Notes under the pieces: model-generated | Told to the model about the DNA's origin: nothing | Database searches by the model: none | What the model saw: only the letters and a program-made list of their open reading frames with translations | Part shown: positions 31,677 through 45,634 of the stretch, piece after piece | How the letters are laid out: each line of letters starts with the position of its first letter | Position numbering within the stretch: the stretch's first letter is position 1 | Translations under genes and position numbers: made by a program | Virus record (IMG/VR): IMGVR_UViG_3300042973_000021 | Span: 32,001 to 96,000 of that record | DNA length: 64,000 nt | Strand: one strand, 5' to 3' | Source of the DNA: a virus | Lineage: Duplodnaviria; Caudoviricetes

Positions 31677-34148
31677 TTATATTTGTTTAGGCAGTGCCTC
31701 CCATAGCCTCATATCCTCTTGGCCTAAAGACCATATGGCAATTCCTCTAAGCTTCCATCGATACGCTGCCTCGTTTGCCCAATAAACAAGGCTGTCTACA
31801 TCCTGATAATAAAGAATAGAAAAACCGTCAGCATCTCCAAGAAACAAACGTGAAATCCAGACATTGATGTCCTTGGGAACGATTTTTACTGAATAATCAT
31901 TTCCACAGACTAATGGCAAAAGACCTGAATGGAAGAAATCATAATCCATAGAGATGTCCTGGTTTCGTGTAGAAGCTTCCTCCACATCATTGTTAACTGT
32001 GAAAACCTGAAACTCACTATCCCATGTTACACCGGTTCTTGCCAGCCGCCCATACTCAGTTGTGGTTCCATCCGGGAAGGTTACATCAAACCTTTCATAA
32101 GGTTCATAAGTCCAGGCATCTCCCAGTCTAAGTAATTCACATAGAATACGTCCATCAGACCGAACCCCGGCATACCCTCCTGAAAAACCACTAAGCGTCG
32201 CTGTAAAGCGCAAAACATTGCTTGCTCCAGAATAAACCCTCACAGAGTTACCTCGTATCCTCATTTCAATGGTGTACATTCTTGGATTTGAGCGAAGATC
32301 TGCTGATGCCGTTTTAACGATTTCAGTGGTGTAACTGCCAATTAAAGAAGCACCATTATATAGTTCAATACGCTGTGTATTAAAGTTTAAACAGCAAAAG
32401 ACATTACCACAAAAAATGCCTGCACGACCACTTCCCTCTGGAGTAAAGGCCAACCTTGCCCGCAAATGAACATCTGAAAACCCACTATACTTCCACGCCA
32501 ATTGGCCATACCCGTCAAGCTGCGAATAGGGACGACTGGCGGGATCATTTTGATTTTGCCATACCTGCCACTCGCCGCTTAGTGCTGTCCAGTAGCTGGA
32601 GGGAAGTGGATTGTCATCTCTGAAGTCTTCATACCAAATTAGTGCTGAATCAGGCTTTCTGCGTAGCACCTCAGTGGTCAATTTAAAACCTTTATCGGGT
32701 TCAGCCATTAAACCGTTCACATCTTTAAATTTGCGAGGAGATAGCATAAACTCTGCCTCTCCAGCAGAAGGTTCTTCAGAAAAACTCGAACATACTCGAA
32801 ATCCATAGAACTGCACACCTGGTACTGAGGTACTAACGCTGACAGTATGGGTACCAGCTGAAAGAAATACACCAGAAACCAAGGAAAGCCAACAAGTTGT
32901 TCGCCAATATGGCCACCACAGCCTATTCTCGCTAAATACCTTACTTGTCCCGTCAAGTGAAACATGAATGCTATTCTTATCCCAGAAGGGAAATGAGATG
33001 CGAATGGCTACATCATAAATACCAGCAGATGAAATTTCAAATTCGTATTCGGCTTCACCTTCTTCACCAAGTGTTATCATTTGAGAAGAAACCGATACAT
33101 TACCAGTATAGCTATCAGGAGTTCCGCCACTACGATCTACATATATCGTGCCAAATTCAGTTTTTTGCTGCTTGCTATAGGCAGTCAAATACCTGCGACG
33201 GTTATAAGTTTCACCCAGTAAAGGATAGGTTCTTGAAACTGCATCCCAGCCTTCCATGTAGTCATACACATGTGGCAAGGCCCAAGGCACCTTATCATAA
33301 TCATCCCAATACGCTATGATAGGAATCATGGGCTGTGGTGGTCCATCATCCGTAAAGTTATATCCCCCTGTCATCCAAAGCTGTGCCGCATAATATGTGT
33401 TTGAAATCCCACGATAAGTGATGCCCAGATTTTCTGGTGTATCGTGGATTCTCCAGTTCCAACCATATGCAGGCAGTCCTAAAAATATTTTTTCAGGAGT
33501 CATAACCCGGACTGCATAATCATAAATGCCTTCCAACCAATCCCTGGGAGATACCGAACCCGGTGCAGAGCCTGCCCACGCCATGCCATAACTCATAATC
33601 GCTGCTGTATCACAATAGGCATTCAAGTCTTCATAAACACACCAGTTTTCGCCACCAACCGAGCCTTGTACTCCAGTCATGCCCGGTAGACAAATATTTA
33701 CGAGTTTCGAAGAATCATAGGCTTTAACAGAGTTATATATGTCTCGAAATAGAGCATTAGCAGCATCCTTGTTTTCATAGCCACCTCCACGTTCCAAGTC
33801 TATATCCACTCCAGCACACCAAGGATACTTATTCATGATGCGAATAATCTCAGTAAGAAATTTATCCTTTGCACCATTGGTGTTATTTCTAAGGGCTGTA
33901 AAAATAGAAGCCGTACCATGGTTCATGATTGTAAGCAGCCATTTGATATGAGGCCAGCGGTTAATGTAAGTAAGCATACTGGATATGCTTGTTCCTGTTT
34001 CTGTTATGGTCCCGGTGATATCCACTTCAAAAGTAAAAATACCCACCGTATCAATTCGATCACCATAGTCTCGTAATGCTTGATACATGCGGGTATTCCC
34101 CATGAAACTCCAGACCATACAACGCTTACCTTTTAAATAGTCAATCAA
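31677..34148 (-). CDS. Glycoside hydrolase family 18 protein with inserted beta-rich domains
   Basis: GVDIDLE (DxDxE), IMSY, LGLPAYG, GIAIWSLGQED. Confidence 0.85.
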   Translation of the reverse strand: MIDYLKGKRCMVWSFMGNTRMYQALRDYGDRIDTVGIFTFEVDITGTITETGTSISSMLTYINRWPHIKWLLTIMNHGTASIFTALRNNTNGAKDKFLTEIIRIMNKYPWCAGVDIDLERGGGYENKDAANALFRDIYNSVKAYDSSKLVNICLPGMTGVQGSVGGENWCVYEDLNAYCDTAAIMSYGMAWAGSAPGSVSPRDWLEGIYDYAVRVMTPEKIFLGLPAYGWNWRIHDTPENLGITYRGISNTYYAAQLWMTGGYNFTDDGPPQPMIPIIAYWDDYDKVPWALPHVYDYMEGWDAVSRTYPLLGETYNRRRYLTAYSKQQKTEFGTIYVDRSGGTPDSYTGNVSVSSQMITLGEEGEAEYEFEISSAGIYDVAIRISFPFWDKNSIHVSLDGTSKVFSENRLWWPYWRTTCWLSLVSGVFLSAGTHTVSVSTSVPGVQFYGFRVCSSFSEEPSAGEAEFMLSPRKFKDVNGLMAEPDKGFKLTTEVLRRKPDSALIWYEDFRDDNPLPSSYWTALSGEWQVWQNQNDPASRPYSQLDGYGQLAWKYSGFSDVHLRARLAFTPEGSGRAGIFCGNVFCCLNFNTQRIELYNGASLIGSYTTEIVKTASADLRSNPRMYTIEMRIRGNSVRVYSGASNVLRFTATLSGFSGGYAGVRSDGRILCELLRLGDAWTYEPYERFDVTFPDGTTTEYGRLARTGVTWDSEFQVFTVNNDVEEASTRNQDISMDYDFFHSGLLPLVCGNDYSVKIVPKDINVWISRLFLGDADGFSILYYQDVDSLVYWANEAAYRWKLRGIAIWSLGQEDMRLWEALPKQI

Positions 34149-42887: not shown

Positions 42888-43490
42888 TTATTCTCCACTT
42901 CCGCCAGAAGCAGCAAATGTAGGCTCATACACTTCGCTATACCAACCATTAATAATTGCCTGGGTTACGCCCTCATCACCCTCGTTTACTTCTGCTTTCC
43001 ATGGATGCTTACCCTGACCATCCAGCTTATTTCTACGAAGTACTGTTCCTTCAATGGTCGGAGTTGAGAAAGTAATACTATCACCTTTGGTCGCCAAGTT
43101 TGTTGCAGGAATTCCAAACTTCACACGATACAGCCAAAAGTATCGGTATTTACCGTTTGCCTTTTGTGCTCTAAAGCCAATTGCAACAGGAGCCCCGCCA
43201 TCCTCACTGGTTGAAATGAGTACATGGTTGTCATCAATGGTTGCTCCTGTTAAATCTCCTGCAGCTGTTACCCCTATATCATCAATACCGAGAGTAAGGG
43301 TACCACTTTTAAATTCTTTGACAATTTCAGCGGCACCATCATCGGCATAAAGAGTGGCCTCAGCAAGCTCAACGGAAAGTTCTGCACTGATTGCTTTTGC
43401 TAGCGGCATCGGTGTATCATAGGTTTCATCACCGTTGTCATCTTCGGTGATTTTTGCATAATAAAGTCTATCCAGACCGATTGTAGCCAT
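42888..43490 (-). CDS. Major tail protein
   Basis: IGL..LYYA, LYADDG, GFRA.K.NG..RYFW; AGGAGG RBS. Confidence 0.88.
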   Translation of the reverse strand: MATIGLDRLYYAKITEDDNGDETYDTPMPLAKAISAELSVELAEATLYADDGAAEIVKEFKSGTLTLGIDDIGVTAAGDLTGATIDDNHVLISTSEDGGAPVAIGFRAQKANGKYRYFWLYRVKFGIPATNLATKGDSITFSTPTIEGTVLRRNKLDGQGKHPWKAEVNEGDEGVTQAIINGWYSEVYEPTFAASGGSGE

Positions 43491-43669
43491 GTTTTATTCC
43501 TCCTCGTATAGTAAGTTTAGAATCCTCTTTCGAGGTAATTTCCAGTTCGTTTATTGCTCTTTGATAACTTCATAGATGGTAGTTCAGATAGTGGGGGGCT
43601 AGCCCCCCATTATCTGAAAATTCTTGGGTTGGACTTTTCGGGATGTCCCTAGATAATGGTCTTAGGATC

Positions 43670-43855
43670 GTTTGGGGAAATTCTTTCTCCTCCTGTAGCT
43701 TTGACTACTAAAAAAGTCTGTTTCCCCAGCTCTTGTTTGAACTTCTAACCCGCAGGCCGTTCCCTTTGGCAGCCCATGCTGGAAGTTGCAGCTTCCAGGC
43801 AGCTCATGGACCAAAGTGAGTTCTAATACGCGAGGGTGATTGACCGACAAGTGCG
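43670..43855 (+). ncRNA. Putative IS110 bridge RNA (target- and donor-binding loops)
   Basis: Stem TGGGGAAA/TTTCCCCA encloses TCCTCCT and AAAAG, matching the target; second loop carries CCGCAGG and ATACG, matching the donor junction. Confidence 0.7.
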
Positions 43856-43913
43856 CTGGGGGTATCCCGAAGAGTCCTTCCCCTGATCCTAAAATGAAAG
43901 GAGGTTAACCCCA

Positions 43914-45143
43914 ATGAAACTATTTGTTGGAATAGACGTTAGCTCTCAGGATATGAAAGCTTGTGTCATGAATTTTGCAGGAGAAGCATTAACTGCTTTC
44001 ACTGTTGAAAACAACTTAACAGGGGCATCTTATCTGAGAGATCAGATTGTCAAGATAGCCCAAAAAAACTCAATTTCCGAGATTCAAATCGGAATGGAGG
44101 CCACATCTGTTTACAGTTGGCATCCAGCTATGTTTTTTCATGAAGATGAATCTCTTAGGGAATTTAATACTAAAGTCTTTACCATTAACCCAAAACTGAT
44201 AAAAAAGTTTAAAGAGTCCTACGTTGATCTGGATAAAACAGACCAAGTCGATGCTTGGATTATTGCGGATCGACTAAGGTTTGGACGTCTTCCACTAACG
44301 GCGGTCATGCAGGAACAATTTATTGCCCTTCAAAGAGTGACAAGAATGAGGTACCATCTCGTTCACGATTTGACACGGGAAAAACAGTATTTCCTTCAAC
44401 ATCTCTTTTACAAGTGCAGTTCCTTTACGACCGAAGTGGACAGCTCAGTGTTTGGAAATGCCATGCTAGAGCTATTCCAAGAGCAATATAGCTTAGATGA
44501 AATTTGCTCAATGGATCTTCAGGAACTTGCTAGTTATCTTCAGGAAAAGGGCAAACGTCGTTTTACAGACGCCGAATGTGTGGCGAAGTCCATTCAAAAG
44601 GCTGCGCGGTCTTCCTATCGACTATCGAAGTGTGTGGAAGATTCCATCGACCTTTTGTTAGCGACTTCTATTGAGTCCATCCGTAGTACTACTAAACAGA
44701 TCAAGGAATTGGACAAGGCCATCCAGAAGATTATAGACGGTATTCCTAATACCCTGCAGACGATTCCTGGAATAGGACCGGTCTACTGCGCTGGTATCTT
44801 AGCTGAAATTGGACAAATTGACCGGTTTAGTGACCAAGCATCAATTGCCAAATATGCTGGATTAACTTGGTCAAAGCATCAATCAGGAAAGTTTCAAGCT
44901 GAGGAAACCAAAATGATACGCTCAGGTAATCGTTATCTTCGTTATTACCTTGTTGAAGCTGCCAACTCGGTACAACGGTGTGAACCTGAATTTAGGGCAT
45001 ACTACCTGAAAAAGTATCATGAGGTTCCCAAGCACCAACACAAAAGAGCACTCGTCTTAACCGCAAGAAAACTTGTGCGTCTGATCGATGCGCTGCTACG
45101 CAACGATCAAGTCTACACGCCAAGAAGGAAGGTGAATAACTAA
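43914..45143 (+). CDS. IS110-family DEDD recombinase/transposase
   Basis: VGIDVS, MEATS, KTDQVDA, IPGIG, QSG, GN.YLR. Confidence 0.95.
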   Translation: MKLFVGIDVSSQDMKACVMNFAGEALTAFTVENNLTGASYLRDQIVKIAQKNSISEIQIGMEATSVYSWHPAMFFHEDESLREFNTKVFTINPKLIKKFKESYVDLDKTDQVDAWIIADRLRFGRLPLTAVMQEQFIALQRVTRMRYHLVHDLTREKQYFLQHLFYKCSSFTTEVDSSVFGNAMLELFQEQYSLDEICSMDLQELASYLQEKGKRRFTDAECVAKSIQKAARSSYRLSKCVEDSIDLLLATSIESIRSTTKQIKELDKAIQKIIDGIPNTLQTIPGIGPVYCAGILAEIGQIDRFSDQASIAKYAGLTWSKHQSGKFQAEETKMIRSGNRYLRYYLVEAANSVQRCEPEFRAYYLKKYHEVPKHQHKRALVLTARKLVRLIDALLRNDQVYTPRRKVNN

Positions 45144-45256
45144 GGGATGAGATATCCTAAATCCTTCAATTATTTCCAGTAAATGGATGGAAATTTTACT
45201 GGGTTTCTTTAGTATTGCCTTTTTTAGATGCTGGTGGGTTTAAAATTTCCAATTCC

Positions 45257-45634
45257 TTAGATTTTTGGGCTTGACATATTACCGCAGGACTTTTCCAATT
45301 GAAATTCATATGGTTTAGCCACATCTATGGCATAATGGTGATAATCGGTATCATCCTCATGTCCGATGTATCGACGATCCGTTATCGTAAAATCCGCACC
45401 TAGAAGAGTGCGGACAATGGCATTTTTTATAGCTGTATAACTGCCTTTCACAAATAAGGAAAGTCTGGCTTCCTGTACTTCATATCCCGGTGTGTTATCC
45501 GCATGAACCTCAAACAAATCAATAAGAGGTGTAATCACAAGATAAGTATCAGGAGGAACACCAGAAAATCTTCCTGTTTCTACTGGGATACCGCACAATT
45601 CTGCTATGAGATTAAGCTCATTTAATATACTCAT
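45257..45634 (-). CDS. Tail completion/terminator-like protein; C-terminus altered by IS110
   Basis: Position between the HK97 gp10-like gene and the major tail gene. Confidence 0.7.
   Translation of the reverse strand: MSILNELNLIAELCGIPVETGRFSGVPPDTYLVITPLIDLFEVHADNTPGYEVQEARLSLFVKGSYTAIKNAIVRTLLGADFTITDRRYIGHEDDTDYHHYAIDVAKPYEFQLEKSCGNMSSPKI

Follow-up and report, generated by a model that had tools for sequence, protein, structure and literature searches.

The question raised by this locus was how an IS110-family insertion sequence (IS) inside a prophage came to lie immediately beside the ribosome-binding site (RBS) of a tail gene. The DNA analyzed, hereafter the window, comprises 64,000 nt (positions 32,001 to 96,000) of the 162-kb IMG/VR provirus record IMGVR_UViG_3300042973_000021. 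The element occupies window positions 43505–45289 on the plus strand (1785 bp), within the minus-strand structural module of the prophage, between the tail-terminator gene and the major tail gene. The answer favored here, with a probability of about 90%, is that its bridge RNA carries a guide spelling an anti-Shine–Dalgarno (anti-SD) sequence, and that RNA guidance places the element, like its relatives, at the upstream border of ribosome-binding sites.

The element is flanked at both ends by the 2-nt core CT (43503–4 and 45290–1), without terminal inverted repeats and without any longer target duplication. One long open reading frame (ORF), encoding a protein of 409 aa, is preceded by a non-coding left end of 409 nt and followed by a right end of 146 nt, which bears only a −35 box and a donor half. 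Coordinates of all features are collected in Table 1. The element is apparently an intact, recently mobile member of the IS110 group: the identical transposase was present at at least six sites, and of the two full copies comparable base for base, one was identical and the other carried a single-base difference.

Insertion site and guide–target covariation

For determination of the pre-insertion sequence, the flanks were joined with a single CT. The resulting 32-nt sequence, which includes TTATTCCTC-CT-TTTCC, was matched exactly in nine IMG/VR contigs, and an IS-free join of 1 kb from each window flank was collinear with them at 92.6–99.6% identity, eight contigs covering about 2000 nt and one, ending early, covering 1863 nt. 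Because these exact, collinear empty sites occur in nine related phage contigs, the insertion was precise and the predicted target is real. The preliminary description had identified this target as the RBS of the major tail gene, which agrees with the empty sites and with the position of the Shine–Dalgarno (SD) sequence: AGGAGG is the minus-strand reading of 43499–43504, followed by AATAAAAC and ATG. On the minus strand the left flank reads AGGAGGAATAAAAC-ATG, so that this SD begins with the two bases complementary to the core CT. Comparison of the guides with both strands of the window minus the IS (62 kb) gave a single perfect match (10/10), the occupied site, and five sites with one mismatch.

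No second copy of the element was present in the 162-kb provirus record, and further copies were therefore taken from other assemblies. Megablast with the element gave no match in the phage collection and only a 134-nt match at 78% among plasmids, and a protein-based scan of viral contigs for homologues also gave no match. A protein-seeded scan using one genome per species yielded 70 loci at 93–35% transposase identity, with hosts in Bacillus, Alkalihalobacillus, Alicyclobacillus, Geobacillus/Anoxybacillus, Heyndrickxia, Paenibacillus, Virgibacillus and metagenome-assembled genomes of Clostridia. Exact-protein look-ups placed the identical recombinase at 10 places and three relatives (93%, 93% and 85% identity) at 30; homologues number roughly 8000 in all. 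The resulting junction set comprised 60 independent left and 63 independent right junctions, from copies and relatives at 100% to 52% transposase identity. The ends were common to all relatives, CGTATA(G/A/T)T... on the left and ...CTTGACATATTACC-N6-(A/T) on the right, with CT flanking.

Across these junctions the flank consensus was ..YCCTC-CT-TTW. Read leftwards, CCT was invariant and was followed by T (75%), C (77%) and C (57%), and read rightwards the flank was CT-T-T-(T/A). In almost every relative, the target-loop bases were N(6–7)-CUCCU before the distal hairpin and N(3–5)-AAG after it. An element's own guide fitted its own flank better than the flanks of other elements at positions −4, −6, −7, −8 and +3 to +5. 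On the left side, 301 guide–flank matches were counted, compared with 247.3 after permutation (standard deviation 7.9, z 6.8), and on the right side 201 compared with 160.5 (standard deviation 6.3, z 6.4); none of 20,000 permutations reached the observed value on either side.

Sister elements provided the clearest evidence. The identical transposase with the identical target loop was found at other sites reading ATTCCTC-CT-TTTT, TCTCCTC-CT-TTTT, ATCCCTC-CT-TTA and TTCCTCC-CT-TTTT. For the window's element, with left guide TCCTCCT and right guide (written as target) CTTTTT, the left and right halves of the sites were (A)TTCCTCCT with CTTTT, TCTCCTCCT with CTTTT, and ATCCCTCCT with CTTTA. A 93% relative with guides ATCTCCT and CTTTTG occupied about 18 sites of consensus ATCTCCT with CTTTT, and the 85% relative with guides CCCTCCT and CTATAG occupied sites of CCCTCCT with CTAT(A/T). 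The target-loop guides covary with the flanking target, and four copies at about 40% transposase identity showed the same flank pattern as the main set. Comparison of the flanks of other copies was the test by which the preliminary description had proposed to stand or fall, and it stood, since both the sites and the sister elements follow their guides.

SD-like flanks could also result from specificity determined by the protein or from survival bias, the loop motifs then being coincidental or structural. CTCCT is near-invariant in guide and flank alike, so this part cannot separate pairing from protein preference, and insertions elsewhere would often be lethal and hence unseen. In contrast, the variable positions listed above track the elements' own flanks at the z values given, proteins 85–93% identical but with differing right guides sit at CTAT and CTTT, respectively, and within 62 kb no site other than the occupied one matches the guide perfectly. 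Because the covariation is observed between near-identical proteins, a purely protein-determined or survival-biased pattern cannot explain it, and we consider this explanation very improbable.

The occupied sites are genuine ribosome-binding sites. On the opposite strand the left flank reads AGGAGG-N7–8-start, and in 41 of the 60 sites a start codon lay 13 or 14 nt from the core. ATG was found at offset 11–16 in 40/60 sites, compared with about 9% expected by chance, and 20 of the 31 such starts in the first set opened ORFs that either comprised at least 60 codons or comprised 30 or more and extended beyond the fetched flank. At the look-up loci, gene callers mostly placed the start of the minus-strand gene 13–15 nt from the element. 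The copy on Bacillus thuringiensis plasmid pBLB1_74, annotated as "ISBth166 family", adjoins an annotated gene start at offset 14, and Clostridial relatives of about 40% identity, with guide UUUUUCCU/CUUUC, were also located at AGGA(A/G)-N-ATG sites. Insertion was at the exact 5' edge of the SD and always antisense to the target gene, an orientation that follows from the asymmetry of the guide. The earlier claim that the guide is effectively an anti-SD, bringing the element down just upstream of ribosome-binding sites, is borne out by these offsets. The composite target YCCTC-CT-TTW is the reverse complement of the extended Bacillota SD AAAGGAGG, and presumably reads as a DNA version of the 16S rRNA 3' tail.

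The left guide contained an invariant CUCCU from 93% to about 40% transposase identity, from Bacillaceae to Clostridia, and guides across the sampled clade (to about 40% identity) differed only in 2–3 bases per side of the invariant CUCCU..AG. It is fairly likely that the target class is hard-wired at the level of the clade and not only programmed in each element, with purifying selection keeping the guide on the ribosome-binding site, a genome-wide landing pad in any host.

Structure of the bridge RNA and its donor guides

The 290 nt upstream of the recombinase gene were conserved across all relatives, as opposed to the first 120 nt of the left end. RNAalifold, applied to 37 sequences, gave a 21-pair helix closing the structured region. 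Over the whole alignment it recovered no more than this helix and the small hairpin, together with a few spurious pairs, as MAFFT slips register at the inner stems. The inner stems were therefore drawn by hand from single-sequence folds, and pairs were then counted. In the resulting 64-pair model, 87.7% of cells were paired, compared with 32–49% with slid partners, and changes on both sides were observed in 37/64 pairs. The covariation score was 0.351, compared with at most 0.124 in slid controls, and none of 500 shuffles reached 0.351.

Folded singly, the target loop gave a stem, an internal loop and a 4–5-bp hairpin in nearly all 37 relatives. A few minimum-energy folds deviated, and the sequence of the basal stem varies between lineages. 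The donor region, folded in ten representatives, showed a comparable layout in about half of them, and support for the donor-loop stems consequently comes mainly from the pair counts of the 64-pair model. The left end carries a structured RNA with two internal loops, as is characteristic of the IS110 group, and the layout of target loop and donor loop that the preliminary description had likened to IS621 was recovered, along with the structural covariation it had called for.

The coordinates reported earlier for the junctions, the target loop and the donor loop were all correct, and so were the positions of the guides. Guide lengths had to be corrected, and the left donor guide was found to be non-contiguous through the core. 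The right donor guide had been read as ATACG, which is one register of a CG repeat; this reading was abandoned, as ATA-NN-CGAG fits all relatives instead. Its NN is free (CG, TG, GG, AA, CA, GA or AG). At the junction, ATA pairs with TAT and CGAG with CT-CG, so that nine RNA bases correspond to seven DNA bases. A discontiguous 9:7 right donor guide of this kind was described by Durrant et al. (PMC11208160). The left donor guide occurred as CGCAGG, CACAGG, CGCTGG/CGUUGG, CGTAGG and CACAAG, and the right end of the element varied alike in each lineage. With the discontiguous right guide, the donor guides match the element's own ends. At window positions 43757–43758, directly after CGCAGG, CC was found here and in the Heyndrickxia group and CT in most relatives.

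A different role for the left target guide CUCCUCCU would be that of a cis-acting anti-SD, which would mask the RBS of the recombinase (43897–43906) and throttle its translation, targeting being a side effect. The sequence is perfectly complementary to the recombinase AGGAGG, 200 nt downstream on the same transcript, and control of an IS110-family transposase by structure in its 5' untranslated region is known for ISPpu9 (PMC8450116). In a partition function of 43626–43935, however, the probability of pairing between 43685–94 and 43894–907 was close to 0, and 43689–94, six of the seven matching guide bases, was predicted to be unpaired in the target loop. Masking in cis also gives no account of the flank covariation or of the matching right guide, and it is as improbable as specificity set by the protein. 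Chance resemblance to the flanks, arising from short stretches rich in pyrimidine or in A within an AT-rich non-coding end (a 7-mer and a 5-mer, each alone a few percent likely in 400 nt), was rejected on the junction permutations and structural covariation counts, and its probability is negligible. The matching positions recur and covary over the 60 left and 63 right junctions, all of them independent, and the helix whose internal loop contains both motifs is itself supported by covariation.

Table 1. Coordinates of the element, its RNA and the adjoining genes in the window
Feature	Position	Strand	Remarks
Left target half and core	43494..43504	+	TTATTCCTC + CT
Left junction	43494-43502, 43503-4, 43505-9		TTATTCCTC, core CT, element start CGTAT
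−10 box	43507..43512	+	TATAGT, tip of left end; pairs with −35 box only in circular form
Leader hairpin, GC-rich, perfect	43583..43618	+	CAGATAGTGGGGGG-CTAG-CCCCCCATTATCTG; between junction promoter and bridge RNA
Bridge RNA structured region	43631..43877	+	21-pair closing helix around small hairpin, target loop and donor loop
Closing helix, 21 pairs	43631-43652 with 43856-43877		98.6% paired; 11 pairs with compensatory changes
Small hairpin inside closing helix	43655-43672	+	
Target-binding loop	43673..43728	+	Basal stem 43673-81 / 43720-28
Target-loop stem	43673-80 / 43721-28		TGGGGAAA/TTTCCCCA
Left target guide	43687-94		CTCCTCCT; last 7 (TCCTCCT, 43688-94) match target
Distal hairpin in target loop	43695-43708		GTAG/CTAC, 43695-8 / 43705-8
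Right target guide	43712-16		AAAAG
Donor-binding loop	43732..43851	+	Basal stem 43732-37 / 43846-51; distal stems 43765-43815
Left donor guide	43750-56		CCGCAGG
Right donor guide	43826-28, 43829-30, 43831-34		ATA, bulge CG, CGAG
Transposase/recombinase, 409 aa	43914..45143	+	Own SD 43897-43906
−35 box	45271..45276	+	TTGACA, near right-end tip
Right junction	45282-9, 45290-1, 45292-6		Element end CCGCAGGA, core CT, TTTCC
Second core and right target half	45290..45296	+	CT + TTTCC
Major tail protein gene	42888..43490	-	phrog_88, E 2.9e-52; its ribosome-binding site is the target, intact in left flank
Tail-terminator gene	45257..45634	-	phrog_78, E 2.9e-12

Recombinase, proposed mechanism and points of conflict

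The recombinase matched the Pfam families PF01548 (DEDD_Tnp_IS110, E 3.2e-29) and then PF02371 (Transposase_20, E 5.1e-27), and scored 243 bits against NCBIfam NF033542 "IS110 family RNA-guided transposase", for which the cut-off is 140. It aligned to the ISCro4 (9t56) and IS621 (8wt6) chains at about E 1e-10, with the GIDVS, MEATS, KTDxxD and SG motifs conserved. By sequence alignment only, in motifs aligned to ISCro4, the DEDD residues correspond to D8, E62, D110 and D113 and the catalytic loop to S324-G325; the catalytic residues of IS621 are D11/E60/D102/D105 and S241-G242 (PMC11208158). Domain order and putative catalytic residues are those of the IS110 group.

The circle junction, TTGACA-17 nt-TATAGT/TATAAT, was conserved in all relatives, and a junction promoter across the joined right end and left end (RE-LE) has been described for IS110 elements (PMC11208160). 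A promoter is predicted to be reconstituted in the same way here. Circularization would bring TTGACA of the right end and TATAGT of the left end 17 nt apart, and the junction promoter would then transcribe the leader, the bridge RNA and the recombinase gene. We infer that the RNA is expressed, processed and bound by the recombinase, and that the protein is catalytically active. In the target loop, CUCCUCCU on the 5' side has the sequence of the target top strand and would thus pair with the bottom strand, that is, with AGGAGG of the opposite-strand gene, and AAAAG on the 3' side would pair with the top strand CTTTT. The donor loop would carry the joined ends of the element, with CGCAGG for the right end and ATA-NN-CGAG for CT-CG-TAT. 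By analogy with IS621, the DEDD/Ser recombinase would swap strands at the CT core, and the expected outcome is a gene with SD and start codon intact, cut off from upstream transcription.

Several observations weigh against RNA-guided insertion as described above. The effective guide is short: its left part comprises 7–8 nt with the core counted, and its right part 5 nt. The left donor guide pairs non-contiguously through the core, the base before the core (A or T) being skipped and never matched, and in this copy it reads GGCCG, compared with GGCTG in most relatives. Some sites (L029, L043 and L051) matched their guide poorly. About 7 of the 60 sites (about 12%) carried an extra C beside the core (..CTCC-CT compared with ..CTC-CT in the guide), and for these sites simple contiguous pairing offers no explanation. 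An Rfam 15 scan of 43300–45500 (E up to 1) found no bridge-RNA family, giving only two sub-threshold chance matches (U4 and a scaRNA). The global topology of the RNA, a 21-pair helix closing both loops, is unlike the 5' stem-loop plus two stem-loops drawn for IS621.

The sites with an extra C behave as if a 1-nt target bulge beside the core were tolerated, and such tolerance may widen the landing pad. Left junctions with an extra C were L027, L032, L075, L090, L099, L100, L110 and L122, and L010 has an extra A likewise. L051, in which the tip of the left end is tandemly duplicated (CGTATAGTATATT twice) and the left flank fits the guide poorly, may be a rearranged or aberrant copy.

The leader hairpin has no U-tract on either strand and is therefore not an obvious terminator. 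In relatives, a different GC-rich hairpin occupies the equivalent place in the leader, for example GGGGGAGGGGCGCCCCTCCCCC in Anoxybacillus.

Effects on target genes and relation to known systems

Since the SD and the start codon remain with the target gene, the coding sequence is usually spared. The description of the target class as gene-sparing holds to this extent. It does not hold for the upstream gene in tightly packed operons such as the present one, where its last codons can be hit: the tail-terminator frame formerly ended ..K-E-E-TAA (stop at 43494–96) in the SD region, and its last two codons are now replaced by 11 IS-encoded ones. In addition, 1.8 kb of antisense DNA now separates the target gene from its upstream transcript. 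A consensus scan of the minus strand detected no outward-facing promoter of the left end that might re-drive the target gene, and terminator-like hairpins on this strand were weak only. The antisense insertion in the tail operon probably impairs late gene expression.

Bridge RNAs, with their architecture, have been known since 2024 (PMC11208160, Durrant et al.; PMC11208158, Hiraizumi et al.). The window's element shares with IS621 and ISCro4 the DEDD RuvC-like domain and the Tnp domain with its catalytic Ser-Gly loop, the location of the guide RNA in the left end upstream of the gene, the CT core, and a promoter rebuilt across the circle junction. The target loop is likewise organized, its 5' side equal to the top strand (left target + CT) and its 3' side complementary to CT + right target, and the donor loop has the discontiguous 9:7 right guide. 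In contrast to IS621, the protein comprises 409 aa rather than 326, with a longer region between its two domains, and the RNA, about 247 nt long, has both loops enclosed by the 21-pair helix and is preceded by a 110-nt leader and a GC hairpin. On the left, 7–8 nt of guide are effective compared with 9, and the natural target is a ribosome-binding site, whereas that of IS621 is a REP-like (repetitive extragenic palindrome-like) repeat.

Within the family, translation initiation signals have been found as a target before. IS900, an IS110-family element of Mycobacterium avium subsp. paratuberculosis, targets those of host genes in one orientation according to Doran et al. (1997, Microbiology 143:547), as cited in PMC8141618. 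That work predates bridge RNAs. The window's element resembles IS900 in this target class and in its single orientation, but it is inserted 5' of the SD, which is kept by the gene, with the start codon 13–14 nt inside the left flank. In IS900 the insertion reportedly separates the SD from the start codon, and the element is said to have been proposed to borrow host signals for an antisense ORF (hed) that spans it. No long antisense ORF of this type was present in the window's element, the longest comprising 62 aa.

ISBth166-family elements and unnamed IS110 elements of Bacillaceae, Alicyclobacillus, Anoxybacillus, Heyndrickxia and Clostridia have the same ends (CGTATA... and ...TTGACATATTACC-N6-(A/T)), RNA architecture and SD-type target. 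They differ from the window's element in protein sequence (40–93% identity) and in the guide bases at variable positions. No ISfinder-style name for the window's element was found in the annotations covered. Elements of the IS1111 group, directed by seekRNA (Siddiquee et al. 2024, PMC11187229), also combine a DEDD transposase with RNA-guided, site- and orientation-specific insertion. Their guide RNA lies downstream of the gene and they possess subterminal inverted repeats, neither of which applies to the window's element, whose guides are upstream and whose right end is only 146 nt long.

The bridge-RNA papers covered by the literature search made no mention of Shine–Dalgarno, and no paper was found that reports an anti-SD guide in a Bacillota clade of bridge RNAs. 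The supplementary target sets of the bridge-RNA papers include RBS-like targets such as ..CATATTTCACCCCTCCTTTATC... The conservation of an anti-SD guide across the clade and the class of 1-nt-bulge sites go beyond what was found in print, and the mechanism itself is known. With at least 60 independent insertions, this is a clean natural case of a bridge RNA aimed at a motif carried by every host gene. Targeting of the RBS explains the many landing sites available in any new Bacillota genome, prophage or plasmid with the coding sequence unbroken. For annotation, the ends (CGTATA... and ...TTGACATATTACC-N6-W) identify the clade, and the guide allows its insertion sites to be predicted. For engineering, the clade supplies compact bridge recombinases of Gram-positive origin, together with guide variants and mismatch and bulge data from nature.

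In the plasmid collection, homologues below 60% identity were carried by 119 Bacillus plasmids and by 413 Enterococcus plasmid records, of which many are conjugative. The RBS of the recombinase (window 43895–43906) reads AACCTC-CT-TTCA on the minus strand, a near-cognate target with 2 mismatches in 10, which would suit head-to-head insertion by another copy. Chimeric junctions, with a shared left flank and a right flank differing in the other sample, were noted for L076 and L074, for L091 compared with L085 and L084, and for L102 and L096. At L091, the left flank of one copy is joined to the right flank of a copy 200 kb away in a complete genome. Such chimeric junctions suggest deletions or inversions between copies.

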